A DNA stretch of 64,000 bases from an uncultured Chloroflexia bacterium (GCA_963714675.1 CAVQPG010000001.1:44598-108597); one strand, 5' to 3'; shown: positions 2,408 through 59,218, counted from the stretch's first letter. A program made the numbers and translations. The notes: generated by a model not told the origin, from the sequence alone.

Positions 2408-2409
2408 GG

Positions 2410-12289: not shown

Positions 12290-12293
<4 letters not shown>
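11475..12293 (-). CDS. ABC transporter permease (NitT/TauT family)
   Basis: Six-TM BPD-transport permease; its end overlaps the start of the ATPase gene. Confidence 0.85.
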
Positions 12294-13123
<830 letters not shown>

Positions 13124-33323: not shown

Positions 33324-34307
33324 GTGGTCGCGATGGGCATCGGCGCGGTGAGCATCGCCCCGACGGAGGTGCTGGCCATCCTCGCGGGGCAGCTGGGGCT
33401 GGACCTCGGAGCCGCCTACAGCGAGCGCCAGGAGACCGTGCTCACCGCCATCCGCCTGCCGCGCGTGCTGGCGACGGCGCTGGTGGGGGCTGCCTGGGCC
33501 GTGGCCGGCGTGGCCATGCAGGGGCTCTACCGCACACCGCTCGCGGATCCGGCCCTCGTGGGCATCGGCGGTGGCGCCGCGCTGGGTGCCACGCTCGGGA
33601 CCGCAGCCGCCGTCTCGCTCGGCATCGTGGCCGGCTACGGCGGCACCGTGCTCGTCATCGCGGCGGCCTTCGTGGCGGCATCGGTCGCGGCCTCGGTCGT
33701 GTACCGCGTGGCCTCGTCCTCCGGCCGCGTCGTGGTCGCCACCATGCTGCTGGCCGGGATCGCCTTGACGGCCTTCTTCGGTGCCGTCACGGCCCTGGTG
33801 GTGGCCGCTGGCCGCACGCCCGAGCTGGGCTCGGTGCAGTTCTGGACCCTCGGCTCGTTCGCCGGCATCGTCGGGCGCGACGTGGTCGTGGGCGCGCTGC
33901 TGGTCATCCCCGCGGTCACCGTCCTGTGGCGCGTGGGACCCCGGCTCGATGCCCTGGCCCTGGGCGCGCCCGAAGCCGGCCATCTCGGTGTCGACGTACC
34001 CAGGCTGACGCGCATCGTGAGCGTGGTCTTCGCCCTGCTCACGGCCGTGGCCGTGGCCACCGCCGGCGTCATCGCCTTCGTCGCGCTCATGGTGCCGAGC
34101 CTCGTCCGTGGCTGGATCGGCCAGGCCCATCGCGACGTGGTCATGGGCTCGGCGCTGCTCGGCGGCACGCTGCTGGTCGTCGCCGATGTGCTCGCGCGCA
34201 GCCTCTTCTCGCCCGCAGAGCTCTCCATCGGCGTCATCACCACCCTCATCGGCGCACCCTTCTTCCTGTGGCTGCTGCTGCGTGACCGGGGCCTGCTGGC
34301 CCGATGA
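33324..34307 (+). CDS. hmuU: FecCD-family iron-complex ABC permease (HmuU-like); N-terminus probably extends upstream
   Basis: FecCD core present. The in-frame upstream codons encode TM1 (TRAGLRLAILALVLVAAIVV) but begin with GTA overlapping the hmuT TAA stop (GTAA, where GTGA would be expected), so there is no canonical start. Confidence 0.8.
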   Translation: MVAMGIGAVSIAPTEVLAILAGQLGLDLGAAYSERQETVLTAIRLPRVLATALVGAAWAVAGVAMQGLYRTPLADPALVGIGGGAALGATLGTAAAVSLGIVAGYGGTVLVIAAAFVAASVAASVVYRVASSSGRVVVATMLLAGIALTAFFGAVTALVVAAGRTPELGSVQFWTLGSFAGIVGRDVVVGALLVIPAVTVLWRVGPRLDALALGAPEAGHLGVDVPRLTRIVSVVFALLTAVAVATAGVIAFVALMVPSLVRGWIGQAHRDVVMGSALLGGTLLVVADVLARSLFSPAELSIGVITTLIGAPFFLWLLLRDRGLLAR

Positions 34308-35107
34308 CCTACCGTGCGATCGAGGTCGCCGTCCGCATCGGCGGAGCCAGCCTGCTCGACGGGGTCTCGGTGGAGATCCAGCCCGGCCAGATCGTGGCCG
34401 TGGCCGGGCCGAACGGTGCCGGCAAGACGACGCTGCTGAGCGTCCTCGCCGGTGACCGCCCGCCGTCGGCCGGCGTGGTCACGCTCGACGAACGACCCCT
34501 CGACCAGTGGCCCGGAGGGGAGCTGGCGCGACGCCGCGCCGTGATGGGCACCGATCGTGCGGTGGCCTTTGCCTTCAGCGCCGCGGAAGTGGCCATGCTC
34601 GGTCGGATGCCGCTGCATGGTGGTGACCCGGACGATGCTGACGATGTCGTGATCGAGGAACTGCTCGGAGCGGTCGATTGCGCGGGTCTGGGTGAACGGG
34701 TCTACGCCACGCTCTCCACCGGTGAGCAGCAGCGGGTGAGCCTGGCGCGCGCCGTGGCCCAGGTCACCGATGCCCCCGGTGTGACCCAGCCAGAGGCTCG
34801 CTATCTCCTGCTCGACGAGCCCACCTCCAGCCTCGATCCAGCACACCAGCACACGGCCATGCGCCTGCTCCGCCGGGTCGCCGATGGCGGCCGTGGGGTG
34901 CTCGCCATCGTGCACGACCTGAACCTGGCCGCCGCCTACGCCGATCGCGTGGTGCTGATGCGTGAGGCCCGGGTGGTCGAGGACGGGACGCCTGCGCAGG
35001 TCCTGCGGGCCGACCTGCTGGAGGCGGTGTTCGATATCCCCATGCTCGTCATCCCGCACCCGCAGCTGGCGCACCCCATCGTGATCGCCGAACCGCACGA
35101 GGGCTGA
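34304..35107 (+). CDS. hmuV: heme ABC transporter ATP-binding protein (HmuV-like)
   Basis: Walker A GPNGAGKTT, signature LSTGEQQR, Walker B LLLDEP. Confidence 0.85.
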   Translation: MTYRAIEVAVRIGGASLLDGVSVEIQPGQIVAVAGPNGAGKTTLLSVLAGDRPPSAGVVTLDERPLDQWPGGELARRRAVMGTDRAVAFAFSAAEVAMLGRMPLHGGDPDDADDVVIEELLGAVDCAGLGERVYATLSTGEQQRVSLARAVAQVTDAPGVTQPEARYLLLDEPTSSLDPAHQHTAMRLLRRVADGGRGVLAIVHDLNLAAAYADRVVLMREARVVEDGTPAQVLRADLLEAVFDIPMLVIPHPQLAHPIVIAEPHEG

Positions 35108-35296
35108 GATGCCCGGGCTCGCCGTGGCGTCGGTCGTGGCCCGCTCGCTGCAGGCCCTCGGGTCCCCAACACCGTTCGTCGCATGATCGGACGTGCAGGC
35201 ACTGCGCGGATGATGGCGGAGGTAGCCAAGTGCGATATCTTGTGTGTGAACCGCCGCCGCGATCGAGGATCGTCGACGCGAGGTGGGTTCTTCCGA

Positions 35297-35372
35297 GCGG
35301 GAGTAGCTCAGTTGGTAGAGCGCTAGCCTTCCAAGCTGGATGTCGCGGGTTCGAATCCCGTCTCCCGCTCCA
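35297..35372 (+). tRNA. tRNA-Gly (anticodon TCC)
   Basis: 76-nt cloverleaf GCGGGAG-TA-GCTC-AGTTGGTA-GAGC-G-CTAGC-CTTCCAA-GCTGG-ATGTC-GCGGG-TTCGAAT-CCCGT-CTCCCGC-T-CCA; anticodon loop CTTCCAA; CCA encoded. Confidence 0.9.
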
Positions 35373-35527
35373 ATCCTCTCTTTCACGCTCGCGGCGACGC
35401 GCTTCCAGCCCTTCCACGGTCCCACCCCGGTGACTGCAAGCTCGGCTGGGCGGCCAGACCAGCCAACGTCTCCGGCTCCCGCCTCGTCGGCGTGACCGCG
35501 GGAGGGACGTGCCTGTCCTGGGCGGGG

Positions 35528-35968
35528 CTACTCCACAAGCCGCACGAAGGCGTAGATCCCCTGGATGACGCCGAAGGCGGGCCACATCCCCCAGATGACG
35601 ACCCAGTAGACAAACCCTTCCTTGCGGAAGCCCATGTCCCGGTCCCACACGAAGATGGGGATGGCCGAGTAAAGGTACGGGACCGAGGCGGCCAGGGCCA
35701 GGACGAAGCCCCACTCCCGGCCAAGGAGCATGCCGATGCTCCCGATGATCTGCAGCGGCGCCCACAGGAGCACGTCGGCCCAGGCAAACCCCTGGTTGAA
35801 GGCGAAGTAGGCCTTCGGGTCGGTTGAACCGGGGTCGCCTCCGTAGACCATCTCGACCGTCCGGGGCGCACGCGGCCGTACGATCGCGACCAGCTGCAGC
35901 GATGCCAGCAGACCGATCAGGACGAGCCCGGCGATGGCCACGACCCACGTCAGCACGGTGACTTCCAT
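35528..35968 (-). CDS. hypothetical integral membrane protein
   Basis: Four predicted TM helices; shares a WAD/LW/PxxGxLL/YxYxA pattern with the neighbouring ORF. Confidence 0.5.
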   Translation of the reverse strand: MEVTVLTWVVAIAGLVLIGLLASLQLVAIVRPRAPRTVEMVYGGDPGSTDPKAYFAFNQGFAWADVLLWAPLQIIGSIGMLLGREWGFVLALAASVPYLYSAIPIFVWDRDMGFRKEGFVYWVVIWGMWPAFGVIQGIYAFVRLVE

Positions 35969-35995
35969 GCCACTACCCCCCTCTATTCCCCCAGA

Positions 35996-36466
35996 TCAGG
36001 CCAGGTCGGCCACGGCTACGCCGATGGTGATGAGGCCGGCCGCAGCCCACACGCTGAGCATCGCCAGACCGAGCCGGACGCTGCCCGGTTCGCCGATACG
36101 GAACCCCCGACGCTGCAGCTCCAGGCGGGTGAGGATGCCGCGACCGGCAAAGTAGACGTACATGCTGCCGCCGATGAGCCCGAGATAGGCCCACGTGGCG
36201 TGGCCGGCGATGAGCAAGATCCCTGCCGCCGGCAGCACCCACAGGACTCCTAGGTCCCAGAGCGCCTCACCCCGGATGTCCGCCCAGTAGACGTCCTCGA
36301 CCGTGTCCTCGCGCTCCACGAGGCTCAGCCGGGCAGCCGTGCCGGGCGCGAACCCTGTCAGGGCCTGGCCGCCCCACGCCAGGAGCCCCAGAACGGCGAT
36401 GGTGATGCCCCATACCAACTCCACAGCGGCCTCCTCAGACGTACTCGGCGGATCCGCCGGAGCCAT
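35996..36466 (-). CDS. hypothetical integral membrane protein, paralog of 35528..35968
   Basis: Similar TM topology and shared motifs (VYWADIRGEALWDLGVLWVLPAAGILLIAG). Confidence 0.5.
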   Translation of the reverse strand: MAPADPPSTSEEAAVELVWGITIAVLGLLAWGGQALTGFAPGTAARLSLVEREDTVEDVYWADIRGEALWDLGVLWVLPAAGILLIAGHATWAYLGLIGGSMYVYFAGRGILTRLELQRRGFRIGEPGSVRLGLAMLSVWAAAGLITIGVAVADLA

Positions 36467-36770
36467 GTTTCGTCAGGTCCCCGAGGACCTCATCGCCGCG
36501 GACGACTTGTCCTCGCCAGCCGCCTGAACGTATGCCAGCACTTCGTCGGCCTTGGCGACTGGCTGCTCGGTCGATGTCCCCGAGCTCGAGTACATCGGGT
36601 GAGCCGTATTCGTGCCGGACGATCGCTTTGATGGTGTCCTCCTCATCCCTCGTCGGCTCAGTGAAGGGGGCCAGCTGCACGCCATCGGCCCCTTCGTCAG
36701 GTGCGGGATCGGATGTACCTAGACACCATAGCTGGACGACGAATGCTCGTGCCTCTGAGCACGGTGCCAC
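36435..36770 (-). pseudogene. N-terminal fragment of an MDR-family quinone oxidoreductase/alcohol dehydrogenase
   Basis: IKAIVRHEYGSPDVLELGDIDRAA and GDEVLGDL...GGSAEYV match MDR N-termini (compare the intact genes at 46115 and 47545); interrupted by out-of-frame stretches; its 5' end is fused to the attR-like arm. Confidence 0.5.
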
Positions 36771-36834
36771 TGCGCTCAGGCGTTTCGGCCTACCAAGCTG
36801 GATGTCGCGGGTTCGAATCCCGTCTCCCGCTCCA
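36755..36834 (+). repeat. attR-like direct repeat, copy 2: 47-nt 3' half of tRNA-Gly preceded by a conserved non-tRNA arm
   Basis: 36788..36834 matches the tRNA 3' half with one mismatch; the upstream CTGAGCACGGTGCCACTGCGCTCAGGCG arm is shared with copies 3 and 4 but not with the tRNA gene. Confidence 0.6.
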
Positions 36835-36914
36835 CCCCTTCAGTTCCCTGCCTCGGCTACCGTCGGTGTCAGTTGGGCGCGGTCGAGCGTAGGATCGGTT
36901 GCCTGACGCGGCGC

Positions 36915-37532
36915 TCAGCCCGTCGGCATCGCGAGGATCGCCTCGAGCGCGGGAGTGGCGCGGTCGAACGTGTCAGCGACCACGTCCGCCGGTGTGCCGA
37001 GGGTCTCATCCTGGAGCCAGGCAGCGATGCCGGCCCGCATGATGGCGACCGTGGCGTGGGCCAGGATCCGAGGCCGCGGGTCGGCCGCGATGTCTACACG
37101 CAGATCGACCGCGACCTCCCTGGCCAGTTCGTCCTCCCAGCGCACCTGATAGGCCAGACCAGCCGCCATCACCGCGGGCTCCCTCGCTCCGACGCGAGCC
37201 TCTGCGCGTACCAGGTCGGGCTCGAAGTAGGCGGCGGTCAGGGCCAGGAGCCCCCGCCGAACGGCAGCGATCGTCGGCTCATCGGGCGGCCCTTCCGCGA
37301 GGGCCACATGGAGCGCTTCCAGCTTGCCCGCGGGGTCCACGATGAAGGCCTCGTCCTTGCTCTCGAAGTAGCGAAAGAACGTGCGGCGGGAGACGTTCGC
37401 CTCCGCCGCGATGTCATCGATGGTGGTGGCCGCGTAGCCGCGCTCCTCGAACAGGCGCATCGCCGCCCGTGCCAGCGCCAGCCGCGTCTGCAGCTTCTTG
37501 CGGGCGCGCAGCCCTGTCGCCTCGGTACCCAT
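36915..37532 (-). CDS. TetR-family transcriptional regulator
   Basis: TetR HTH (RLALARAAMRLFEERGYAATTIDDIAAEANVSRRTFFRYF); divergent from the MFS gene. Confidence 0.85.
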   Translation of the reverse strand: MGTEATGLRARKKLQTRLALARAAMRLFEERGYAATTIDDIAAEANVSRRTFFRYFESKDEAFIVDPAGKLEALHVALAEGPPDEPTIAAVRRGLLALTAAYFEPDLVRAEARVGAREPAVMAAGLAYQVRWEDELAREVAVDLRVDIAADPRPRILAHATVAIMRAGIAAWLQDETLGTPADVVADTFDRATPALEAILAMPTG

Positions 37533-37551
37533 GGCCGAAGCGTAGGGCGTC

Positions 37552-37603
37552 GACACTCTGGTGTCAAAGGACATCTTAGTGTCAAATGGCACTGTGATGT
37601 CAA
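37552..37603. promoter_or_regulatory. candidate TetR operator / divergent promoter region
   Basis: Relatively AT-rich stretch with the palindrome GACACTCTGGTGTC and three TGTCAA motifs spaced 17-18 bp apart, between the divergent TetR and MFS genes. Confidence 0.4.
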
Positions 37604-37704
37604 TATGTGGGCTGCCAGGATCGTGCTGCGCGGTGGACCGGACCGGACAGGCACCGCGCTCGACAGCTCACTCGAACAGGTCCGACATCTCGAAGGAGGT
37701 CGAG

Positions 37705-39411
37705 ATGGCCGCCAGCGTCATCCAACGCGGCGTACCCACGCCTGATTTCTCGGATCGCTACCTCACGCTCGCCCCGCGCGCGCTGCGCGGGGTCCTCGCC
37801 AGCCTCGCCCTGGTCATGCTTACCGCCTCGCTCAATTCGACGGCGGTCGGCACGGCGCTGCCCCGCATGGTCAGCGACCTCCGGGGCAACGATCTCTATG
37901 CCTGGGTCTTCACCGTCTATCTGCTCACGATGACCGCCACCATGCCGTTGTGGGGCTCCCTGTCCGACCGGTTCGGGCGGCGGCCGGTCCTGTTCACCGG
38001 ACTCGCCGTCTTCCTGGGGGGCTCCGCCCTGTGCGGGCTGAGCCAGGAGATGTGGCAACTGGTCGTCTTCCGCGGCATCCAGGGCCTGGGCGCCGGTGCC
38101 ATCGTGCCGGTGTCACTGGCCATCATCGGCGATCTCTTCCCACCCGCTGACCGCGCTCGCTACCAGGCGGCCTTCAGCTCCCTGTTCGTCCTGGCCTTCC
38201 TCATCGGCCCCACCGTCGGAGGCGTCCTGACCGATTCCGTCAGCTGGCGGTGGGTCTTCTACATCAACCTGCCCATCGGCCTGTTCGCACTCGCGGTCAT
38301 GTGGCGCTTCATGCCACAGCTCAAGAGCAGCGCCCAGGTGGCGCGCTTCGACGCCCTGGGGGTCGTCCTGTTCGCGGCCGCGATCGTGCCCCTGCTCGTG
38401 GGCATCCGGAATCTGCCCGATGGGACCTTGACCGATCCCACAGTCGGAGGGCTGATGCTTCTTGGTCTCCTCATCGGGATCCTCTTCCTCGCGGTGGAGT
38501 GGCGAGCCGAGTCGCCGATCATCCCCGTTCGCCTCTTCCGTGACCGGACGTTCGCGGTCGCATCCGCGGTGGTGCTGCTCGGCGTGGCCGGATTGTTCAT
38601 CGCGATCGTCTTCCTACCCCGCTACTTCCAGCTGGTCCACGGTGCGAGCGCGACCGAGTCCGGCTGGCAGATCATGACGCTGCTGATGGGACTCATCGTG
38701 GGCGCCGTGGGCGCCAGCCAGATCGTGGCCCGGACGGGCCACTGGAAGGTGCCGCTCCTGTCAGCGATGGTCGTCGGCGCCGTCGGCATGCTGCTGCTCT
38801 CGGGCCTGCACGCTGACTCGTCCATGCCGGTCGTCTGGAGCGCCATGTTCCTGACGGGCCTGGGCCTCGGACCGATCAGCGCGGTGCTGACCGCGGTGGT
38901 GCAGACGACCTCGCCCCCGGCCGTGCTCGGGGTCGCGACCAGCACCCTGACCTTCTTCCGCCAGCTCGGAGCGTCGATCTGGCTGGCGGTGGGAGGCTCG
39001 ATGTTCTCTGCCACCTTCCGCGAGCAGTTGCCGAACCAGCTGGTCGCGAACGGCGTCCCGGCGGACGTGACCGCGGGCCTCACCACTGGCTCAGGGGCAG
39101 TGGCGTCCGAGGGGACGGCCACCGTCGGCGACCTCGGCGCGGCCATCCTCGGCAACCTTCCCGACGAGGCTCGGCCCGCGATCGAGCCGTTCATCGGAGG
39201 GATCGTGGCCGGCATGCACGAGGCCTTCAGCCTCGCGAGCGGCTCGGCCTTCTGGCTCGGGATCGGTGCGGTCGTGGCCGCGTTCCTGGTCCTGCTTCCG
39301 CTCCCCGAGCAGCGACTCCCGACGGAGCGACTCGCCGAGATGCGGGGTCGAGCTCGGGACGATGGACCCACCCCTTCGACGCCCGATCCGGTGGCGGTGC
39401 GGGGCAGCTGA
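37705..39411 (+). CDS. MFS transporter, DHA2 (14-TMS drug:H+ antiporter) family
   Basis: 14 predicted TM helices and MFS motif A-like GRRPVL; perfect GAAGGAGG RBS before ATG 37705 (the ORF-track start at 37561 is rejected). Confidence 0.85.
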   Translation: MAASVIQRGVPTPDFSDRYLTLAPRALRGVLASLALVMLTASLNSTAVGTALPRMVSDLRGNDLYAWVFTVYLLTMTATMPLWGSLSDRFGRRPVLFTGLAVFLGGSALCGLSQEMWQLVVFRGIQGLGAGAIVPVSLAIIGDLFPPADRARYQAAFSSLFVLAFLIGPTVGGVLTDSVSWRWVFYINLPIGLFALAVMWRFMPQLKSSAQVARFDALGVVLFAAAIVPLLVGIRNLPDGTLTDPTVGGLMLLGLLIGILFLAVEWRAESPIIPVRLFRDRTFAVASAVVLLGVAGLFIAIVFLPRYFQLVHGASATESGWQIMTLLMGLIVGAVGASQIVARTGHWKVPLLSAMVVGAVGMLLLSGLHADSSMPVVWSAMFLTGLGLGPISAVLTAVVQTTSPPAVLGVATSTLTFFRQLGASIWLAVGGSMFSATFREQLPNQLVANGVPADVTAGLTTGSGAVASEGTATVGDLGAAILGNLPDEARPAIEPFIGGIVAGMHEAFSLASGSAFWLGIGAVVAAFLVLLPLPEQRLPTERLAEMRGRARDDGPTPSTPDPVAVRGS

Positions 39412-39435
39412 CCTGATCGACCCCGGACCTCACTC

Positions 39436-39473
39436 GCGTGGACGGCCCCGCCTCGATGGCAGGCCGTCCACGC
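39436..39473. terminator. bidirectional terminator hairpin between convergent MFS and ATPase genes
   Basis: Perfect 12-bp inverted repeat GCGTGGACGGCC/GGCCGTCCACGC with a 14-nt loop. Confidence 0.5.
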
Positions 39474-39568
39474 GCTCTGCGGCAGCACCGCTCGGTTCGT
39501 GTCGCATCTCCTTGCCGACTTCGCAAGCTGCTGGGTCGGCGAGCCGGTGTCGTCCATCCGGCTGCGAG

Positions 39569-41917
39569 TCACACCGACGCGGTCACCGGTGCGGACGCGG
39601 CGGGGTGGTCATCGCCGAGCGCCAGGTAGAGCTCCTCCTCCTGCGCCATGTGCAGCCGCAGGATGGCGTCCAGCCCGTAGAGCACGCGCCGCAGGTCGTT
39701 GAGATCCTCGGGCGCCGGCCCTTCCTCGGGCAGCTCGCCCACCATCCGGTCAGCGAGACGGATGAGGTGGAAGATCTCCGTGTGGGTGCGGTGCAACGCC
39801 GAGGTCAGATCGTCGCTCCGTGCCGCTTGTGCGAGCATGGGGAAGATCTCGCGGTCCTCGTGCTCCTCGTGCGGCACCAGCGTCTCGATGAGGAACGAGC
39901 GGGCATCGGCCAAGCGTGCCATGGCCTCAGCGGGAGACAGGTCCCCGAGGGCATCCGCGAGGGAGCGCAATCCAGCGATGGCCGGCGCAAGGTCGCGGTG
40001 TTCGGCCTGCAGACGCGCACTGAGATCGCCCCAGCCGGGGATCCTCGGTGCGCGCTCGACGCCACCGGTGAGGGCTCGCAGGGCGTTGAGGATGACGATG
40101 ACGTCGATGGCCTCCTGGACCAGAGCGCCAGCCACCGGCTGCAGGAAGCCCGCCGCCGCGACGAGCATGGCGGCGATCGACAGCCCCATGCCGATGACGA
40201 CCGACTGAACGGCGATGTGGCGAGCTCGCTGGGCGATCCGGATGCCCTCGGGGAGCCGGTCGAGTCGGTCGACGGTGATGACCACGTCGGCGGCCTCCGA
40301 GCTGGCTGTGGCCCCGCGGGCGCCCATGGCCACGCCGACGTCCGCGCCCGCGAGCGCTGGCGCGTCGTTGATGCCATCGCCGACCATGACGAGTACGCCA
40401 TCGGCCTCCCGTCGCTCCCCGATCACGGCATCGACCTTGTCGGCAGGGGTGCGCTCCGCGAGGACATTGTCGACCCCGATCGCGGCTGCCACGAGGTCGG
40501 CCACGCCGTAGTGGTCGCCGGTCACCATCACGACACGTCGCACACCGACCCGGCGGAGCGAGCGGATGACGCGAGGGGTCTCGGGCCTGATGGGATCATC
40601 GAGGACGAGGGCGCCCACCAGGACCCCGTCCGCGGCGACGTACACGCTCGTGGCCCCCTCCAGGCTGACGCGACGCCGCACGTCGCGCGCCCAGGGCGGC
40701 AGGGACCTCCCGCCGCTCGCAAAGTCGGCGGTACCGGCCAGGACGCTGACGCCAGCGACCGTCCCGGAGACGCCGGCTCCAGGCAGCTCGGTGGCGTCGA
40801 CGGGCAGTGTCAGCGCCACGCCACGCTCCCGCGCACCGCCCACGATGGAAGCGGCCAGGACGTGGGGCGAGACCTGTTCGAGCGAGGCCGCGAGGGCGAG
40901 GACCTCCTCCGGCGTTCGGTCCGGCGCCGTGACCACCTCGGCGAGGCGCGGCCGACCCGCCGTCAGGGTGCCCGTCTTGTCGAAGAGCATGACCCGGGCC
41001 CGGGCCAGGGTCTCCAGGGCTCCGCCGCCCTTGACGATGATGCCGCGCTTGGCCGAGCGACTGATACCCGAGACGATGGCGATGGGTGCCGCCAACAGGA
41101 GCGGGCAGGGCGTGGCCACCACGAGGACGGCCAGGGCTCGTACGGGATCTCCGGAGACGAGCCAGGCGATGCCGGCGAGGACGAGCGTGAGCGGTACGAA
41201 GAGGATCGCGTATCGATCAGCCATGCGCACGAAGGGGGCCTTGGAAGTCTGGGCCTCCTTGACGAGGCGGACGATGCCGGCGTAGGTGCTGTGCTCTGCG
41301 GTGGCCGTGGCGAGCAGGTCGAACGGCGCCCCGGCGTTGACGGTCCCGGAGCTGACGGGGTCGCCGGCCTCGCGCGTGGCCAGGCGGGCTTCACCGGTGA
41401 GGGCCGATTCGTCGAGGACGGCGGGGTCGCCCATGACCGTGCCGTCCACGGGGACCACCTCGCCCGGCTTGACGAGGAGTCGGTCACCTACCGACACATC
41501 AGCGATCTCGCGGTCCTCGATGCCATCGGCTCGATAGCGATGGACGACACGAGGCGCGCGGGAGACGAGCGCGGAGAGCTCCCGGTTGGCACGTCCGGCG
41601 GCATAGCGCTCCAGCCACTCCCCGGTCGCGAGCATGACGCCGATGACGGCCGCGGCCAGCGCCTCTCCGAGCAGCAGCGCACCGCCGATGGCCAGCACGG
41701 CGATGAGGTCGACGCCGGCCTCCCGGTGCAGGAGATCGCGGATGATCGAGATGGCTAGCCAGGCGCCGACCAGCAGCGAGGGGATGGTCCAGGACCACGT
41801 CGCCGCGGCTTCGTCACCGGCGAACGAGAAGGCCAGGCCCAGAAGGAGGCCACCGAGCGTGAGGGGCAGCAGGAGGCGCGCCGTATAGGCGTCCGATCTC
41901 TCGAGTACTCCGCCCAT
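39569..41917 (-). CDS. P1B-type heavy-metal-translocating ATPase with C-terminal hemerythrin/HHE cation-binding domain (P1B-5 subtype)
   Basis: TPCP in the metal-binding TM helix, DKTGT phosphorylation site, GDGINDAPAL hinge; no N-terminal HMA domain; C-terminal ~170 aa carry HxxxE/HHE motifs (LVPHEEHEDREIFPML, HRTHTEIFHL, LRLHMAQEEELY). Confidence 0.85.
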   Translation of the reverse strand: MGGVLERSDAYTARLLLPLTLGGLLLGLAFSFAGDEAAATWSWTIPSLLVGAWLAISIIRDLLHREAGVDLIAVLAIGGALLLGEALAAAVIGVMLATGEWLERYAAGRANRELSALVSRAPRVVHRYRADGIEDREIADVSVGDRLLVKPGEVVPVDGTVMGDPAVLDESALTGEARLATREAGDPVSSGTVNAGAPFDLLATATAEHSTYAGIVRLVKEAQTSKAPFVRMADRYAILFVPLTLVLAGIAWLVSGDPVRALAVLVVATPCPLLLAAPIAIVSGISRSAKRGIIVKGGGALETLARARVMLFDKTGTLTAGRPRLAEVVTAPDRTPEEVLALAASLEQVSPHVLAASIVGGARERGVALTLPVDATELPGAGVSGTVAGVSVLAGTADFASGGRSLPPWARDVRRRVSLEGATSVYVAADGVLVGALVLDDPIRPETPRVIRSLRRVGVRRVVMVTGDHYGVADLVAAAIGVDNVLAERTPADKVDAVIGERREADGVLVMVGDGINDAPALAGADVGVAMGARGATASSEAADVVITVDRLDRLPEGIRIAQRARHIAVQSVVIGMGLSIAAMLVAAAGFLQPVAGALVQEAIDVIVILNALRALTGGVERAPRIPGWGDLSARLQAEHRDLAPAIAGLRSLADALGDLSPAEAMARLADARSFLIETLVPHEEHEDREIFPMLAQAARSDDLTSALHRTHTEIFHLIRLADRMVGELPEEGPAPEDLNDLRRVLYGLDAILRLHMAQEEELYLALGDDHPAASAPVTASV

Positions 41918-42330
41918 GCCCTGCTCTCCGTGGTCTCGTCGTGTTGGCGCCAGTCGATCGAGACTATCGACCAGGCAGCCGGCATGCGAGGGCTGCGTGG
42001 ACCCTCACCGGTGTGCTCGGTGGCAGGTCACGGGCCGTCGCGGTCCCGATGGTCATCGCCCTCCGTGCGAACTCATGGAGCAGTACCGATGGCCTGGCCG
42101 ATGACGTACGTCACGAGCGCGGCCGCTCCACCGAGTGCGAGTTGGAGTAGGCCGCAGCGGACAGGCGAGCGTTCGGTCAGCAGTCTGGTCGCACCGGCCA
42201 ACCGAGACCCGGCAGATGTCAGTCGTGCCAACCTGCGGCTCTCCCGGGACATGCCGGATGACCCTGTGACATCTCAGTGTTCGATGACACATTCAGCGAT
42301 GAGGTCACACGCAACGGTCACCGGGGGTCC

Positions 42331-43440
42331 ATGAACGCCAGCCGTCTACTCGAGAAGCTCGAGGACTTCCGCTTGCTGCCCGTCTTCGTCATCGTGGCCA
42401 TGGCGGTCGGCATCGCCCTCGGCAAGGCACTCTCGATCTCCGACTTCGAGCTGACCCCACCCATCGACGCCATCAAGTCCATCGCGGGGGGCACGTTCGA
42501 TCCGAGCGTGGCGGGCCTCATCAGCCTGGGCGTGCCGGTCGGGCTCTTCCTGATGATGTACCCGGCCATGACGAACGTGCGCCTGGGCGAGGTCGGCCAG
42601 GCCTTCCGCTCGCCGCGCCAGCTCGGGGTCGTGCTCCTCTTCAACTACCTCGTCGCACCGTTTCTCATGCTCCTGCTGGCGAATGTCTTCGTCAGCGATC
42701 CCGAGCTCCACACGGGCCTCGTGCTCTACGGTCTCGCGCCCTGCATCGCCATGGTCATCGTCTTCACGTATCTCGCCAAGGGCAACGTGCCCATGGCCCT
42801 CGTCTTCGTGGCCATCAACTCGGTCGCCCAGATGCTGCTCATCCCGCTCTATGCGCGCCTGCTCATCGGCACCGTCGACTTCGACGTCCTCCTCGTGGGC
42901 GAGAGCGTCCTGTTGTATCTCGGGCTGCCGCTGCTTGCGGGCGTGCTCACCCGCATGGCCGTCGTGCGCCGTGGAGGCGAGGCCGCCATGGAGCGCCTGA
43001 AGCCGGGCTTGAACGCGCTCTCGATCATCGGACTGCTCTTCACGCTCATCGTCATGTTCTCCCTCAAGGGCGACCTCATCCTCGAGCGTCCCGCCATCGT
43101 GGTCGAGATGGCCATCCCGATGACCATCTTCTTCGGGGTCATGTTCTTCGTCGTCCTGCTCATCGGCTCGCGTCTCGGGTTCGGATACGCGGACGGCGTA
43201 GCCGTGGCCTTCAGCACGACGGGACGCGACTTCGAGATCGCCATCGCCATCGCCATCACGGCCTTCAGCCCGACGGTCGCCCTGGCCACGGTCGTGGGCC
43301 CGCTCATCGAGGTCCCGGTCATGCTCTTCCTGGTGTGGGCCGCGATGCGCTTGCGGCCCCGACTCTTCGGGGGCTCGGCCGGCGCGGGCGAGGACCTGTC
43401 CGCACCCGGCTCGGCGAGACCGGGGACCATGCGCTCATGA
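42331..43440 (+). CDS. ACR3-family arsenite/antimonite efflux transporter (BASS-related)
   Basis: ACR3-type 10-TM fold; start at MNASRLLEKL. Confidence 0.75.
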   Translation: MNASRLLEKLEDFRLLPVFVIVAMAVGIALGKALSISDFELTPPIDAIKSIAGGTFDPSVAGLISLGVPVGLFLMMYPAMTNVRLGEVGQAFRSPRQLGVVLLFNYLVAPFLMLLLANVFVSDPELHTGLVLYGLAPCIAMVIVFTYLAKGNVPMALVFVAINSVAQMLLIPLYARLLIGTVDFDVLLVGESVLLYLGLPLLAGVLTRMAVVRRGGEAAMERLKPGLNALSIIGLLFTLIVMFSLKGDLILERPAIVVEMAIPMTIFFGVMFFVVLLIGSRLGFGYADGVAVAFSTTGRDFEIAIAIAITAFSPTVALATVVGPLIEVPVMLFLVWAAMRLRPRLFGGSAGAGEDLSAPGSARPGTMRS

Positions 43441-43523
43441 TCGCCCCTCGAGCCGAGCCGCCGGCCTGTCGGTTCTGCCTGGGTCTGGGGAGACGATATC
43501 CGGACAGTGCCACTCGGATCTCC

Positions 43524-43600
43524 AGCACGGTGCCACAGCGCGACACGGAGGCGGCCTTCCAAGCTGGATGTCGCGAGTTCGAGTCTCGCCTCCCGCTCCA
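43524..43600 (+). repeat. attR-like direct repeat, copy 3: tRNA-Gly 3' half with compensatory T-stem substitutions
   Basis: 43554..43600 GCCTTCCAAGCTGGATGTCGCGAGTTCGAGTCTCGCCTCCCGCTCCA; the T-stem reads GCGAG/CTCGC versus GCGGG/CCCGT in the resident tRNA; the arm motif AGCACGGTGCCAC is conserved. Confidence 0.6.
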
Positions 43601-43763
43601 CTTCCGTTGTTCACGCATGTGACGGGGCAGTGGCTGCGTCGCATCGTTGCCCTCGAAGTGACTTGGTCAGCAGCCCAGGGCCATCCCGACTTGACCAAGG
43701 CCACACTGGCTCGCTGATGGTGCGAAGCCAGACACCATGACGGGACACGAAACGCCGGGGGGT

Positions 43764-43843
43764 CAGAGCACGGTGCCACTGCGCTCAGGCGTCTCGGCCT
43801 TCCGACCTGGATGTCGCGCGTTCGAATGCCGTCTCCCGCTCCA
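43764..43843 (+). repeat. attR-like direct repeat, copy 4: arm plus a degenerate tRNA-Gly 3' half
   Basis: About 90% identical to copy 2 over ~80 nt; the T-stem carries two unpaired substitutions. Confidence 0.55.
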
Positions 43844-43933
43844 CTCCCTCCGCCTGCGCTGCGCGTGACCTCCAGCCCTTGTCGCCCGGGCCGCGACCGA
43901 CCAGGGTGATGGTCGACCGACCGGAGGGGGACG

Positions 43934-44668
43934 ATGCCGCAGCCGGCAGAGGGCGATCACCCGGGCGTGGCCCGACGCTACGAGAGGATCCTCGAACCAC
44001 AGGTGCTCGAAGCCATGCGTCGTGGCTGCAACCTGATGAACAAGGGCATGGTGCCGTTGTGGCGGCTGGGCCTCGGTCGCACGATGAACAGCTGGCCCGA
44101 AGGCGCCGGCCGGATGCTCGTGCTCGAGCACGTGGGTCGGCGGAGCGGTGCCGAGTACCGCACGCCCGTCGACTTCTCGAGGGTCGGTGATGACCTCTAT
44201 TGCCTGGCCGCGTTCGGCGAGAAGACCCACTGGTACCGCAACATCCTGGCCGCACGCGAGTTCGCGGTATGGCTCCCCGATGGGCGCTGGCTGGCCAGCG
44301 CCGAAGATGCCTCGGATGACCCCCGGCGCCTGGACCTCGTGCGCCAGGTCCTGATCGACTCCGGCTTCGCGGCCCGGCTCATCGGGCTCGACCCAGGCCA
44401 GCTGTCGGACGAAGACCTCGACCGGGCCACCTCGACGTACCGACTCCTGCGCATCCACCCGCTGCGCCCGGAAGCCTCGAGCGATGGTCCCGGCAGCCTC
44501 GCTTGGGTCTGGGCGTTCAGCGCGATCGCCATCCTGGTCGTGGTACTTGGCTGGTGGCTTCGTGGTCGGCGCGATTGGGCGCGAGGACGCAACCTGGACG
44601 GCAAGACGAAGGGCGCCACGGATCATCGCGTCGTCGTGACGCGCTGGCGGACCGAAGATGTCGGCTGA
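43934..44668 (+). CDS. deazaflavin (F420)-dependent nitroreductase family protein (Ddn/DUF385) with C-terminal TM helix
   Basis: GRRSGAEYRTPVDF and WYRNILAAREF motifs; GGAGGGGG RBS. Confidence 0.8.
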   Translation: MPQPAEGDHPGVARRYERILEPQVLEAMRRGCNLMNKGMVPLWRLGLGRTMNSWPEGAGRMLVLEHVGRRSGAEYRTPVDFSRVGDDLYCLAAFGEKTHWYRNILAAREFAVWLPDGRWLASAEDASDDPRRLDLVRQVLIDSGFAARLIGLDPGQLSDEDLDRATSTYRLLRIHPLRPEASSDGPGSLAWVWAFSAIAILVVVLGWWLRGRRDWARGRNLDGKTKGATDHRVVVTRWRTEDVG

Positions 44669-47077: not shown

Positions 47078-47150
47078 GCGCGAGGCCGTTCGCGCAGCTG
47101 ACGGGGGGCTGGGCCGGGCCTGTTGCCTGGGCCCCAGAAGCGCAGCTGTC

Positions 47151-47330
47151 CCTCCCGGGACGCCACGCGACCGGCGGGCCCTCGGTGGCCCCCAGCCGTC
47201 CCACCCGGGACGCCACGCGACCGGTGGGCCTTCGGTGGCCCCCAGCCGTCCCACCCGGGACGCCACGCGACCGGCGGGCCCTCGGTGGCCCCCAGCCGTC
47301 CCACCCGGGACGCCACTCGACCGGTGGGGC
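47151..47330. repeat. 50-bp tandem repeat, about 3.5 copies, each bounded by GGGACG...CGTCCC inverted ends
   Basis: Unit GGGACGCCACGCGACCGGCGGGCCCTCGGTGGCCCCCAGCCGTCCCACCC starting at 47157, 47207, 47257 and 47307 (partial); copies 1 and 3 are identical, copy 2 differs at two positions; the region is intergenic. Confidence 0.8.
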
Positions 47331-47544
47331 GGCCGAATGGGTCTGCTCAGCGGCCGTTTGGCCCTCCCCAGGGGACAAGCAGCGAACGAGACCGTGCCCG
47401 ACGGTCGAGTGGCGTCCCATACGGGACGACTCGGGACCAGGGGCGCTCAGCTTGCGGGACCGGCCGATACCGGGCATCAGCCCTGCTGGACCGGCCGCGG
47501 ACCAGGCCACCTGAGCCGATCTCACGAATCGCGGAGCGGAGCGG

Positions 47545-48593: not shown

Positions 48594-49625
48594 TCAGGCG
48601 GCAGGACGCCTCGCGATGACCAGTGTATCGAGGGCGGTCCGGGTGCCCTCCTCGGTCTCGACACGACGCCTGGCGACCTCGGCCACGTCGATCGCGAGCG
48701 TGGACAGCGCCGCCACTGTCTCGTCGAGGTCGTAGCAGCGGTCGGGGGTGGGCGGTCCGCCGTAGCCGTGCTTGATGTTGGTCCGGTCGTGGGCCACCAC
48801 CAGGACGCGTCCGCCGGGTCGCAGCCAGGTGGCCGCGTGCTCCAGGACCGTGCGCACCTGTGCGGGCGGGAGCTGGAGGTAGGCGATGACGACGAGGTCG
48901 ACGGGCTCGGTCGGCGTCCACGTCAGCGCATCGGCGTTGACGGTGACCACGCGGTCGGACACGCCCTTGTCAGCGGCCAGCCGGGCGGCCTTGTCAAGTC
49001 CGCCCTGTGAGAAGTCCACGGCGCTGACGTGCCAGCCATGGGTCGCGAGCCAGACCGCGTTACGGCCCTCTCCGGCGGCGAGGTCGACCGCGCGACCCGG
49101 CGCCAGCCCGCTGATGTGCCGCTCCACGAACTGGTTGGGCTTCACGTCCCAGAGGTACTCGCGACCCGCGTAGCGCTCATCCCAGCGCTCGACCGAGGCG
49201 GCGACCTGGCACTCGGGACAGAGGCCATAGAGCTCGAGCCGATGCTTCTGCACGGTCCAGCCGGTCTTGTGCTCCATGTCCGCGATGGCCCTGCCCAATC
49301 CCAGGTCCGCGACCTCCGTCACGCGCGCGCAGCGCTGGCAGATGACGTGATGGTGGTGGTGGCCCGGGAGGCAGGGCACATAGGCGTGGTCGCCGTTGGG
49401 CAGGTCGATGCGCTCGAGCAGCTGGAGCTCGGTGAACAGGTCGAGGGCGCGGAAGATCGTCGCCCGGCCGATGTCCGCATCGGTGGCCTGGGCATCAGCG
49501 ATGAGGTCGTTGGCAGTGAAGTGGCCGCTGCGGCCGGAGACGAGCCCAGCCACCACGCGTCGCGGCTCGGTCAGCCGATAGCCCGCTTCGCTGAGAGCGT
49601 CGACAAGGGGGTCGGTCATCGTCAT
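48594..49625 (-). CDS. Fur-family transcriptional regulator fused to a C-terminal class I SAM-dependent methyltransferase domain
   Basis: N-terminal ~145 aa Fur/Zur-like (winged HTH, HHHHH, CQRC...CPEC); C-terminal ~200 aa MTase (motif I VDLAAGEGRNAVWLA); a single uninterrupted ORF. Confidence 0.75.
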   Translation of the reverse strand: MTMTDPLVDALSEAGYRLTEPRRVVAGLVSGRSGHFTANDLIADAQATDADIGRATIFRALDLFTELQLLERIDLPNGDHAYVPCLPGHHHHHVICQRCARVTEVADLGLGRAIADMEHKTGWTVQKHRLELYGLCPECQVAASVERWDERYAGREYLWDVKPNQFVERHISGLAPGRAVDLAAGEGRNAVWLATHGWHVSAVDFSQGGLDKAARLAADKGVSDRVVTVNADALTWTPTEPVDLVVIAYLQLPPAQVRTVLEHAATWLRPGGRVLVVAHDRTNIKHGYGGPPTPDRCYDLDETVAALSTLAIDVAEVARRRVETEEGTRTALDTLVIARRPAA

Positions 49626-56561: not shown

Positions 56562-56981
56562 CTACGTGTTCGATGGCATGCGCACGCACCTCGCCCTCTC
56601 GAAGTCCGCGCTACGGGCATCCTCTACCTGCCTCAAACACGTAGGCTTGGGCCGTTCGGCCATCCCTCGCGGGCCGTTCGTCGGTGCGGGACGCGTCCGA
56701 GTCAGCGGAACAGCGTGAGCGCGTCGTCGGCCGTCGCCGGATCCGGTGGCAGCTGCGTAGGTCACGGCCACCCCATCATCCATGATGTAGCAGCCGCCCT
56801 TGACCGGACAGGAGGTGCAGCCGTCATCGACGAAGCGGATGGCCCGCAGCCGGCCCCGTGCGACCAGGGTCTCGAGCATGCCTTCGAGCGCCGAATCATC
56901 GATATGGAGCACGGAACTCAGGTCGGACAGGCACATCGGCTTGCCCGCATCGCGGATCGCCGCCAGCACCGCCGACAGCAT
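56562..56981 (-). CDS. feoC: FeoC-like winged-helix protein with extended C-terminal tail
   Basis: N-terminal ~75 aa resemble FeoC (wHTH plus Cys cluster CTSCPVKGGC); the start overlaps the feoB stop; the 65-aa tail is unconserved. Confidence 0.55.
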   Translation of the reverse strand: MLSAVLAAIRDAGKPMCLSDLSSVLHIDDSALEGMLETLVARGRLRAIRFVDDGCTSCPVKGGCYIMDDGVAVTYAAATGSGDGRRRAHAVPLTRTRPAPTNGPRGMAERPKPTCLRQVEDARSADFERARCVRMPSNT

Positions 56982-58684
56982 CAGACGTACCCGAGGAAGG
57001 TGCCGACCTGGAAGATGACCACGGCCAGCAGCCAGGCGATGCCGAACTGGTAGACCCCCGACAGTGCCGCCCAGCGCCAGCCGAACTCGTTGCGGATGGC
57101 CGCGAGCGTGGCCACGCACGGCGTGTAGACCAGCACGAACACGAGGAAGCCCACCGCGGCCAGCGGCGTGAAGGCAGCTCCGAGTGCCGCGCTCAGCTGC
57201 GTGTCCTCTGGCTGCGCCTCGTCGGCAACGACCAGGTCCACCCCGGGCAACAGGCTGAGCGTGGTCCGGACGGCGCCATCGACCGCGGCCACGAAGCCGG
57301 TGGCGATCGCGCGCACGTCTTCGCCGATCGATGGCGTGGCCGTCGCAGCCTCGTCGACATCTTCGCCACCGACGTAGATCTGGCCCATCGTCGAGACCAC
57401 GACCTCCTTGGCGATGAAGCCGGTGGCCAGCGCCCCGGTGGCCTGCCAGGTCCCGAAGCCGGCCGGCGCGAAGACCGGCGCGACCGCGGCGCTGGCCTGG
57501 CCGAAGTAGCTGTCACGCTGGTCCTCCACGCCCCACGGCAGGCTCATCGCGAACCAGAGGATGACCACGACCGTGAAGATGACGGTGCCGGCCTTGACCA
57601 CGAACTCGCGCGTCTTCTGCCCGGTATGGCGCAACAGCACCTTCAGCATCGGCACGCGATAGGGTGGCAGCTCCAGGGCGAAGACCGAGTCCTCCCGCTC
57701 GCGCAGGATCGTGCGGCTCATGACCGTGGCCACGATCGCCGCCATGACGATGCCGAAGACGTAGAGCGCGGTGATGACGTTGCCGGCGGCCGTCCCGAAG
57801 AACGCCAGCCCGAAGACGACGTACACCGGCAGCCGAGCCGAGCACGACATCAGCGGCAGCACGAGGCTGGTGAGGATGCGCTGGGTGCGGCTCTCGAGCG
57901 TTCGCGTCGAGTAGATGGCCGGGACCGCACAGCCGAAGCCCAGGATCATGGGCATGAACGACTTGCCGTGCAGGCCCGTGAAGCGCATCACGCGGTCCAT
58001 GACGAACGCGACACGAGCCATGTAGCCACTGTCCTCGAGCAGCGTCAGGAACAGGTAGAGCACGATGAGGCCGGGCACGAACACGAGCACCGCCCCCACC
58101 CCCGCGATGACGCCGCCGACCGCGAGCGAGATGAACCAGTCGGGTGCGGAGACGACGGTCAGGAAGCCGGTGACCCAGCGCGTGAACGGGCCGCTGATGA
58201 CCGCGTCCACCCAGTCGAGGAAGAAGGCCGAGACGTTGACCACCAGCTGGAACACGACGTACATCACGACCAGGAAGATGGGCAGCCCGACCCAGCGGTT
58301 GGTGAGGACCCGGTCGAGCCGGTCGGTGAAGGTGTAGCGCGAGGCCCGGGAAGTGTCCACGACCTCCATCGCGACGCCATGGACGTATCCGTAGCGGGCG
58401 TCGGCGATGGCCATGTCCGCCGTGTCGCCGTGAGCCGCCTCGATAGCGTCGCGACCGACCCTCGCCCGGGCCATGACCGGCGACGTTCCCTCGGTCGAGG
58501 CCAGGCGGGCGAGGATGTCGCGCTCGCCCTCGAGCAGCTTGATGGCCAGCCAGCGGGGCGGGAACTCGGCGAGCGACGGGGTCGCGGCGATGAGCTCCAC
58601 GAGCTGGTCGACCTCGGGCTCGACGTCCGCGCCGTAGTCGATGCGGAAGGGTGGCCGCGGGAGGGCGCCGGCGGAAGCGCTCAT
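56981..58684 (-). CDS. feoB: ferrous iron transporter FeoB, GDI/helical plus membrane domains (C-terminal portion of a split feoB)
   Basis: Gate-motif membrane domain; begins at an ATG two codons after an in-frame TAG that ends the G-domain ORF. Confidence 0.85.
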   Translation of the reverse strand: MSASAGALPRPPFRIDYGADVEPEVDQLVELIAATPSLAEFPPRWLAIKLLEGERDILARLASTEGTSPVMARARVGRDAIEAAHGDTADMAIADARYGYVHGVAMEVVDTSRASRYTFTDRLDRVLTNRWVGLPIFLVVMYVVFQLVVNVSAFFLDWVDAVISGPFTRWVTGFLTVVSAPDWFISLAVGGVIAGVGAVLVFVPGLIVLYLFLTLLEDSGYMARVAFVMDRVMRFTGLHGKSFMPMILGFGCAVPAIYSTRTLESRTQRILTSLVLPLMSCSARLPVYVVFGLAFFGTAAGNVITALYVFGIVMAAIVATVMSRTILREREDSVFALELPPYRVPMLKVLLRHTGQKTREFVVKAGTVIFTVVVILWFAMSLPWGVEDQRDSYFGQASAAVAPVFAPAGFGTWQATGALATGFIAKEVVVSTMGQIYVGGEDVDEAATATPSIGEDVRAIATGFVAAVDGAVRTTLSLLPGVDLVVADEAQPEDTQLSAALGAAFTPLAAVGFLVFVLVYTPCVATLAAIRNEFGWRWAALSGVYQFGIAWLLAVVIFQVGTFLGYV

Positions 58685-58687
58685 GAC

Positions 58688-59218
58688 CTAGGCCACCAGG
58701 CGCATCTGCGCCCGCTCGACCCCCACCAGACCGACCGCTGCCTCGATCAGCTCATCCATGCCGCGGCCGCGGTGTCCCACCGTCTCGACCACTGGCGAAC
58801 CACCGAGCAGGGCGCCGAGGCGCCCCTGGTCGATGCGGATGCCCTGGGCCGTGGCGCTGTCCATGACGTTGAGTGCGAGGATCAGGGGGATGCCCAGCTC
58901 GAGCAGTTGGGAGGTGAGATAGAGGTTGCGCTCGAGGTTCGTGGCATCGACCACGTTGACCACCGCATCGGGCTCGCGCGTGAGCAGGTAGTCGCGGGCG
59001 ATGACCTCCTCGGGCGAGAAGGCGCTGAGGCTGTAGGTGCCCGGCAGATCGACGATGCGCCCCACGATGTCGCGCCGCCGGAAGGTGCCCTCCATCTTGG
59101 CCACGGTCTTGCCAGGCCAGTTGCCCACGTGCTGATTGGAGCCGGTGAGGGCGTTGAAGATCGAGGTCTTGCCGGCGTTGGGATTGCCGGCCAGTGCCAG
59201 TGTGAGGACCTCGCGCAT
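58688..59218 (-). CDS. feoB: FeoB N-terminal G-protein domain (split from the membrane domain by an in-frame amber codon)
   Basis: G1 [10 protein letters not shown]3 DLPG, G4 NVVD; same frame as the downstream ORF, separated only by TAG-GTC. Confidence 0.85.

Follow-up and report, generated by a model that had tools for sequence, protein, structure and literature searches.

A transfer RNA (tRNA) gene of an uncultured soil bacterium of the Chloroflexia, tRNA-Gly(TCC), heads a tandem array of three segments, and each of these ends in a displaced copy of the 3' half of the gene. We conclude that the array most probably arose by serial site-specific integration at the tRNA-Gly 3' half, and that the integrating DNAs were small cassettes without an integrase gene, resembling cis-mobilizable elements (CIMEs); part of the array has since eroded. 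We put the probability of this reading at about three in four. The array occupies positions 35,297-43,843 of a stretch of 64,000 nucleotides (nt) (GCA_963714675.1 CAVQPG010000001.1:44598-108597), the whole of which was analysed and is called the window below. It belongs to a known type of genomic-island hotspot, here in a poorly studied lineage: a literature search found no paper that combined Limnocylindria, integrase and tRNA, and no report of a mobile element from this lineage.

The tRNA-Gly gene and the 115-nt unit

Searches with ARAGORN and Rfam were used to locate tRNA genes. ARAGORN detected a single one in the window, the intact tRNA-Gly(TCC) at 35297-35372 (+), which scored 73.9 bits against the Rfam tRNA model. 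The last 47 nt of this gene (GCCTTCCAAGCTGG...CTCCCGCTCCA), which start in the 3' part of the anticodon stem and finish with the CCA end, recur three times downstream, always on the + strand. Mismatches to the gene were counted by eye. Copy 1 (36788-36834) has one, located in the anticodon loop, and copies 2 (43554-43600) and 3 (43797-43843) have four each; in copy 3 both the anticodon stem and the T stem are broken. An initial annotation of the stretch had given these positions for the gene and its three co-oriented copies, and both the ARAGORN result and the aligned sequences bear it out to the base. A 35-nt probe had three matches in the window versus none in shuffled sequences.

The Islander approach maps tRNA-gene islands on the principle that integration of an island rebuilds the target tRNA and displaces a fragment of it (PMC4383910). 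A repeat block that extends from the anticodon stem to the 3' end, on the same strand as the tRNA, is the geometry expected of such an island (PMC4383910), and in the window an intact tRNA gene and co-oriented displaced 3' fragments delimit the inserts. The gene at 35297-35372 is the attachment target and also the present left attachment site (attL), that is, the regenerated gene at the head of the array.

The initial annotation had also noted an arm, foreign to the tRNA, that precedes all three copies. This arm is real: a block reading AGCACGGTGCCAC[T/A]GCGC lies 12 nt 5' of every copy (36758, 43524 and 43767) and is missing from the tRNA gene. When up to three mismatches were allowed, the block had four matches in the window versus 0.29 expected, the fourth being at 31158 (-) with two mismatches. 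Arm (≈ 67 nt) and core (47 nt) together form a unit of ≈ 115 nt. Unit 1 (36721-36834, +) consists of an arm at 36721-36787, with GACACCATA at 36722 and AGCACGGTGCCACTGCGC at 36758, and of the core formed by copy 1; its nhmmer score was 111 bits. Unit 2 (43489-43600, +) has its arm at 43489-43553, and unit 3 (43730-43843, +), the last junction of the array, has its arm at 43730-43796, with GACACGAAA at 43744. Units 1 and 3 are 82% alike over 121 nt (36721-36841 versus 43730-43850); the arm of copy 2, which we call type B, is more divergent. An nhmmer profile built from the units retrieved exactly three full units and the tRNA from the 64-kb window, and nothing else.

To describe the unit, we aligned 19 to 23 units from the window and from related genomes, counting positions from the start of the core. 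Most units carry the 9-mer GACAC[C/G]A[A/T]A (GACACSAWA) twice in tandem, at -66 and -53, and four units carry a further 9-mer at +69 to +72, ≈ 22 nt past the CCA end; it is always in forward orientation. Within the 64-kb window the 9-mer occurs only twice in exact form, in units 1 and 3. Arm-type repeats thus flank the core, and judged by sequence the layout of the unit is that of an attP site with putative arm-type sites on either side (P and P' arms). The P arm and its 9-mers are well conserved across genomes. The trailer of the tRNA gene itself (35373-35410, +) contains a degenerate P'-type arm site (..TTCACGCTCGCGGCGACGCGCTTCCAG), which was recognized by comparison with three related loci (L041, L075 and L090). 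In these, the trailer reads TTCACGCTTG..CGACA.CATAACTG, with the 9-mer motif as in the units; a trailer that represents the P' arm of the most recent insert should look like this. When aligned in the same register relative to the core, 16 nt of the arm agree at 12 positions with the tRNA leader and the first two bases of the gene, so that a captured tRNA locus may be the ancestor of the attP site.

Could the unit instead encode a structured, tRNA-like RNA, or act as a DNA hairpin in the manner of the attC site of integrons? Of all the explanations weighed here we regard this as the least probable. Pairing of the anticodon stem is kept across the arm-core junction, the T-stem changes in copy 2 are paired, and the arm contains a 6-bp inverted repeat, CTGAGC..GCTCAG. 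Nevertheless, a search of Rfam at E ≤ 1 found only the true tRNA and left the units unmatched. The consensus fold that RNAalifold returned for 19 units was weak (-11.9 kcal/mol); its covariation term was positive and compensatory pairs were absent. The arm hairpin is not kept in type-B arms or in arms of the type found in locus L077. The T-arm of unit 2, GCGAG/CTCG (GCGAGTTCGAGTCTCG), is not that of the window's own tRNA; it is the T-arm of a genuine tRNA-Gly, that of locus L093 (12004-12079). The paired changes are thus another natural tRNA-Gly allele, which points to an origin of unit 2 in another genome and not to selection on the fold. A coding function of the unit was likewise considered and was rejected, since the arm showed no 3-nt (codon) periodicity.

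Occupancy of the tRNA-Gly site in related genomes

We fetched ten related tRNA-Gly loci by way of homologs of the ABC-transporter (ATP-binding cassette transporter) ATPase gene that lies upstream of the tRNA (window 34304-35107). The tRNA-Gly gene was found behind the FecCD/ABC operon in 11 related loci and in every fetched locus that extends past the operon, and the DNA 3' of it varies from locus to locus, so that inserts are present in some genomes and absent from others. Two loci (L092 and L093) are without a unit; there the tRNA lies ≈ 150 nt before an SBP_bac_5 peptide-transporter operon. The same operon is found behind inserts in two further loci. In L117 the tRNA is followed by a 5.7-kb sugar-transporter cassette, one unit and then the operon of L092/L093 at 83% identity, and in L076 an ACR3 gene and a type-B unit are followed by the operon at 89%.

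Segments of the window's own array were also found in other genomes. Directly after the tRNA, L095 contains a stretch (11492-12870) that is 91.7% identical to window 35473-36841, i.e. to the first segment (cassette A) with its unit; the flanks are only ≈ 74% identical. L041 has, again directly after the tRNA, 5.3 kb that are 92.7% identical to window 36912-42244, which encodes the TetR, major facilitator superfamily (MFS) and P-type ATPase proteins of the second segment (cassette B), and then a type-B unit. This locus has neither cassette A nor the ACR3 gene, and its upstream flank is 78% identical to that of the window. The ACR3 gene and type-B unit of cassette B recur at 86.6% in L076. In L075 and L090 other cargo (an ECF sigma/anti-sigma pair and secreted proteins) lies between tRNA and unit, and past the unit the DNA resembles what comes after unit 3 in the window; in L075, the homology (1742-1927, 86%) covers unit 3 together with the flank downstream of it.

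The variable occupancy, together with module identities above that of the backbone, indicates that the units mark the distal ends of discrete inserts that were gained and lost independently. The identity of ≈ 92% for cassette A and for the TetR-MFS-ATPase part, versus 74-78% for the backbone, argues for movement that was recent relative to the divergence of the genomes. Hence, the view of the initial annotation that the copies are attR-type junctions (P arm plus core) left by serial integration is backed by both the unit-less and the differently occupied sites.

The distribution of the unit was examined in a genome collection containing one genome per species, with an 18-nt piece of the arm as probe. 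The scan returned 80 loci, 11 of which had the arm beside a tRNA core (ten at ≤ 10 mismatches; the eleventh, L077, has a decayed 3' end). In these 11 the similarity reaches ≈ 45 nt further upstream, and all are metagenome-assembled genomes of Chloroflexota, labelled uncultured Chloroflexia, Candidatus Limnocylindrales or Chloroflexi. The remaining loci look like chance matches to the arm, in unrelated DNA of other phyla, and were set aside. Seven loci with units (L025, L044, L058, L071, L074, L076 and L077) came in addition to those described above for their cargo or flanks, apart from L076, which is among both. Arrays recur: L044 has three units, 1.3-1.45 kb apart, L077 three units and a longer tRNA fragment, and L075 the tRNA and two units; the spacing in the arrays of L044 and L077 is 1.1-1.6 kb.

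These data also bear on the idea that the 115-nt unit is a small mobile repeat, either a miniature inverted-repeat transposable element (MITE) or a tRNA-derived element like a short interspersed nuclear element, and that the genes between the units are ordinary chromosome. The unit is indeed short, conserved and present in several copies, and in a variant of it, found in L077 and L102, the arm motif recurs at the end in inverted orientation. We nonetheless hold this to be highly unlikely. In the window and the 11 loci, every unit with visible context lies downstream of tRNA-Gly in the same orientation; we saw no terminal inverted repeats or target duplications; and the genes between the units come and go together with them. 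BLAST with the arm against phage and plasmid collections gave nothing meaningful, a metagenome scan with the arm + core pattern gave a single match, L088, which was a chance match in coding-looking DNA, and scans of viral contigs gave one chance match with the arm and none with the exact tRNA 3' half. With the 9-mer block of the arm, the viral-contig scan gave 19 matches, among which only L102 contained a unit, and that a divergent one.

The variant unit lies at 7249-7345 (-) of L102 (IMGVR_UViG_3300046505_000116) and at 2337-2429 (-) of L077. The core of this variant breaks off in the T-loop (GCGGGTT) and runs on into ACGATCGTTCCATGGTG(T/A)CG, which is the arm motif GACACCAT in inverted orientation. 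In L102 the variant unit borders on a mobile element with genes for a D5-like primase, a DNA methylase and a small terminase, which are the only mobile-element hallmark genes linked to a unit. The 8.2-kb contig contains no recombinase gene, and the viral-contig scan gave no relatives of its primase.

The contig of the closest relative found, L116 (contig_35088 of ERZ25039603; ATPase 97% identical), ends 33 nt past the ATPase gene, just before the expected tRNA, and so carries no information on the array; this end suggests that the locus breaks assemblies. The identical ATPase is present in Microflora-Danica-type assemblies (ERZ250395xx-ERZ250396xx) and in the runs SRR36096846-SRR36096867.

Cassettes, recombinase and mode of integration

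The three segments measure 1.5, 6.8 and 0.24 kb. Each is bounded by the tRNA or a unit on one side and by the next unit on the other, and holds cargo only, without genes for recombination or transfer. Cassette A (35373-36834) contains two small open reading frames (ORFs) on the - strand, 35528-35968 and 35996-36466, with high third-position GC content (GC3). Their translations are hydrophobic and resemble membrane proteins, and neither has a match in Pfam or NCBIfam. According to the initial annotation the two are paralogous; by BLASTP their relationship is not detectable (E = 0.5). The cargo of cassette B (36915-43440) is encoded on both strands and was identified with Pfam: a TetR regulator (36915-37592, -), an MFS transporter (37561-39411, +), a P-type ATPase with a C-terminal hemerythrin domain (39569-41917, -) and an ACR3/SBF transporter (42277-43440, +). 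The segment between units 2 and 3 (43601-43729, +) has no ORF with coding bias and consists of a trailer that resembles a degenerate P' region; together, this segment and unit 3 amount to an "empty" cassette of 243 nt. Pfam and ORF analysis thus confirm what had been annotated between copies 1 and 2 (TetR/MFS, P-type ATPase, ACR3) and show that ≈ 240 bp without a gene follow.

The genes that had been placed after the last repeat, ddn and fetAB, were found as well. A gene for a Ddn-like deazaflavin-dependent reductase (43934-44668, +; Pfam F420H2_quin_red, TIGR00026) lies just past unit 3, and fetA/fetB-like genes are next. L075 has a shortened version of the Ddn-like gene, with a unit on either side of it (L075 1126-1927 (-) versus window 43731-44379; further unit at 1126-1236), and by this comparison of sequences the gene in the window may be a former cassette. 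A check of GC content and GC3 was uninformative: the GC content of the interval is slightly lower than that of the flanks (0.67-0.68 versus 0.70-0.74), and the GC3 of the cassette genes falls in the same range as that of the flanks. This is expected if the donors were close relatives.

We propose the following mode of integration. Each incoming circle would carry a P arm (two tandem 9-mers GACACSAWA and the block GAGCACGGTGCCAC), the 47-nt tRNA copy and a P' arm with a further 9-mer. Crossover within the shared 47 nt would rebuild the tRNA, and the P arm with the displaced 3' half of the gene would come to lie at the distal end of the insert. With each further integration into the restored gene, older inserts would be pushed outward, giving the order tRNA - A - unit 1 - B - unit 2 - (empty) - unit 3 - chromosome. 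The cassettes would be moved by a recombinase encoded elsewhere, probably a tyrosine integrase with an arm-binding domain, as the arm-type repeats suggest. Homologous recombination between units could reshuffle cassettes as well. The type of recombinase, the point of crossover, the circular intermediate and mobilization in trans are what we infer from the layout of the sites.

Several observations count against serial integration by such cassettes. Pfam analysis, which in the window covered the ORFs with coding-type composition, revealed no recombinase domain among these ORFs, whether inside the array or outside it. The Pfam listings for the ten related tRNA-Gly loci contain none either, nor do those ORFs next to units that were tested in other loci, so that the enzymatic step is proposed by analogy. 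We saw no circular or excised form of a cassette. Because the 18-nt probe of the genome scan was itself part of the arm, the invariance of that block is partly an effect of ascertainment. The left (P') boundaries of cassettes A and B differ between genomes by deletions of 92 and ≈ 330 nt: L095 is without 92 nt that the window has after the tRNA, and ≈ 330 nt that separate the tRNA from the TetR cassette in L041 are missing from the window. Only on the unit side, therefore, are the end points established as precise and site-specific. Finally, unit 1 of the window and that of L095 share the left arm and differ in the type of their 12-nt spacer. Such a swap means that units also recombine homologously, which could explain some of the sharing between genomes.

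Other searches around the units gave cargo-type genes only. An all-against-all BLASTP comparison of the ORFs of 11 loci revealed no conserved gene next to the units, upstream of the arm, and Pfam assigned the ORFs neighbouring units to cargo-type families. One candidate was a 714-residue protein (L067 537-2678 = L090 19035-20804) encoded 115 nt after a unit. It contains two DUF4379 zinc fingers and has no relative in the PDB; its faint similarity to an ISL3-like transposase (E ≈ 1e-3) is far below the family cut-off, and we treated it as an unrelated insertion. A contig ends inside its gene, as happens at repeated insertion sequences.

A rival reading, close to that of the initial annotation, is that the segments are decayed remains of self-sufficient islands or prophages which lost their integrase and most of their genes in place, that the array is fixed, and that sharing between genomes reflects vertical descent or homologous recombination anchored on the tRNA and the units. 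In its favour, our searches did not turn up an integrase in any place, the P' regions have been cut down by deletions, the stems of unit 3 are broken and its segment is geneless. The swapped spacer between orthologous units is a homologous exchange, and the variant unit of L102, beside its primase, methylase and terminase genes, indicates that larger mobile elements use related sites. We take this explanation seriously but consider it unlikely. Integrase-less modules recur at ≈ 92% identity against a backbone of 74-78%, each of them directly behind the tRNA, and it would be improbable for every element in all fetched loci to have lost its integrase independently. Moreover, the cassettes of L044 and L077 have a regular size of 1.1-1.6 kb, and P arm and 9-mers are conserved across genomes.

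The recurrence of integrase-less modules at ≈ 92%, the seven further loci that have units and no recombinase among the ORFs tested beside them, and the conserved P arm led us to the opinion that having no integrase is the usual state of the unit family; it does not look like local decay. The initial annotation, which had rightly recorded that the interval has no integrase, as the rest of the scanned window ORFs now also show, had suggested that the islands were old and eroded. Erosion is real but partial: P' regions are shortened, stems in copy 3 are broken and the third segment is geneless. Judging by the P' deletions and the mutations in unit 3, some of the array appears to have become fixed. 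The description as old and decayed is less secure, given modules without an integrase that are ≈ 92% identical in a backbone of 74-78%.

The region just 5' of the tRNA offers a further candidate for what makes this locus a hotspot. A heme/iron-type ABC uptake operon (Peripla_BP_2, FecCD and the ATPase gene, which ends at 35107) lies upstream, and the gap between the ATPase gene and the tRNA is only 190 nt long in the window. Within this gap, at 35171-35266 (+), comparison by tblastn, translations and a family alignment identified the dead remnant of a two-domain HNH-like ORF. In its full form this ORF has ≈ 210 codons and consists of two repeats of CxxC..DFDHRDP..KCDxVCANCHRxRT (HNH-like with a Cys4 zinc site); it is always immediately 5' of tRNA-Gly(TCC). 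Family members end in ..ERE or ..GRE because the stop codon lies inside the tRNA (GCGGGAGTAG). The ORF is intact in L117 (10810-11442), L094 (11002-11643), L090 (12672-13286) and L118 (10001-10633) and frameshifted in other relatives; the stub in the window reads CVNRR where intact members have CANCH. The protein has 2921 homologs at E ≤ 1e-5 and no match in Pfam or the PDB. The region between the ATPase gene and the HNH-like ORF or tRNA also varies (L089-L096), with an IS5-like transposase in L089, AlkZ-like and RHH/PIN genes in L090, a 728-residue secreted protein in L091 and ECF sigma/anti-sigma genes in L092 and L096.

A double-strand break made near tRNA-Gly by the HNH-like protein might stimulate uptake of flanking DNA, the units being by-products of repair. 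The ORF overlaps the 5' end of the tRNA across the lineage and, as with selfish endonuclease genes, some genomes have an intact copy and others a decayed one; both flanks of the ORF-tRNA pair vary between relatives. We consider it very unlikely, however, that this drives the hotspot: break repair leaves the conserved arm with its positioned 9-mers and the clean 47-nt repeat unexplained, L094 and L118 have an intact ORF and no unit nearby, and nuclease activity is a prediction from the sequence of a protein without a Pfam or PDB match.

A broader proposal is more doubtful than gradual decay of islands, yet far from negligible. In Limnocylindria-like Chloroflexota, tRNA-Gly(TCC) might be the primary site of an integron-like platform, with recombinase-free cassettes of 1-7 kb that each end in a conserved ≈ 115-nt site of attP type. 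Their capture, stacking and exchange between genomes would be the work of a dedicated recombinase with its gene elsewhere in the genome, and the HNH-like gene may help to make the locus recombinogenic.

Three features outside the array are recorded here in their own right. A 50-nt tandem repeat (3.7 copies, 94% matches) at 47143-47328 lies between two convergent zinc-dehydrogenase genes, and an inverted partial copy of it follows ≈ 70 nt downstream (47396-47444). A single ORF at 48594-49625 (-) joins a FUR-family regulator domain to an S-adenosylmethionine-dependent methyltransferase domain (TehB/TPMT-like), an unusual fusion. At 56981-59275 (-), FeoB is split into two in-frame ORFs: the part with the G-domain stops at a TAG (58688-58690), and the membrane part has an ATG start three bases past it.

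Relation to known mobile elements

The array illustrates how flexible genes move between the genomes of an abundant, uncultured lineage of soil and freshwater; the mobile cargo includes metal and drug efflux, arsenic resistance, transporters and regulators. A profile of the 115-nt unit beside tRNA-Gly is a marker with which cassettes can be delimited in metagenome assemblies and contig breaks explained. That no integrase was found in any fetched locus raises a concrete question, namely which enzyme moves the cassettes.

Integron cassette arrays resemble the array in that small, promoter-poor cassettes are ordered in a row, each ending in a recombination site and free of a recombinase gene, with the newest expected nearest the primary site. 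They differ in three respects. No intI-like gene lies beside the tRNA, upstream of which are the heme/iron ABC operon and the dead HNH-like remnant; the site is a tRNA half with arm-type repeats and not an attC hairpin; and the cassette genes run in both directions. In the tycheposons and tRNA islands of Prochlorococcus, successive integrations push older elements inward, and scattered partial tRNAs separate neighbouring elements (Hackl et al., bioRxiv 10.1101/2020.12.28.424599). The stacking of integrations at one tRNA, the scattered partial tRNAs and cargo for the handling of nutrients and metals are common to both. Tycheposons are defined, however, by a deep-branching tyrosine recombinase and replication genes; this recombinase and the replication and packaging genes are absent from the window and from the related tRNA-Gly loci, and the primase and small terminase genes of L102 are the sole link.

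Closer likenesses are found among islands that tyrosine integrases insert into tRNA and transfer-messenger RNA (tmRNA) genes (sublocation classes of Williams 2002; Islander). These, too, have a regenerated tRNA at one end and a co-oriented 3' fragment at the other, a block of identity that starts at the anticodon stem-loop, and tandem occupancy of a single tRNA gene. Here, unlike there, no integrase gene is present in the three segments or among the scanned ORFs of the window, and the segments are very small. Islander accepts a tandem array only if each member has its own integrase, and lists four arrays of three or more among 3919 islands (PMC4383910). CIMEs and the accretion of integrative elements (concept as cited in PMC3146451) offer a parallel: there, too, att-bounded segments without recombination or transfer functions are lined up at a single attachment site. 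No fetched locus contained a partner element from which the integrase could come, and mobilization is proposed here by analogy.

The islands at the ssrA gene of Dehalococcoides are arranged in tandem, with direct repeats as their boundaries and a conserved motif on the upstream side of the repeat (McMurdie et al. 2011, PMC3146451). A pair of serine recombinases, DsiB/DsiA, is found in 16 of 31 of them, and the other 15 are without an integration module and were proposed to be cis-mobilizable (PMC3146451). Their target is a tmRNA gene, with a 20-bp repeat and a crossover in the T-loop, whereas the array in the window has tRNA-Gly as its target and a 47-nt repeat that starts in the anticodon stem; its arm is ≈ 67 nt long with tandem 9-mers, and no recombinase was found. 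Yet both occur in the same phylum, in both the inserts lie in tandem behind one small RNA gene and carry 3'-end direct repeats with an upstream motif, and both include members without an integration module.

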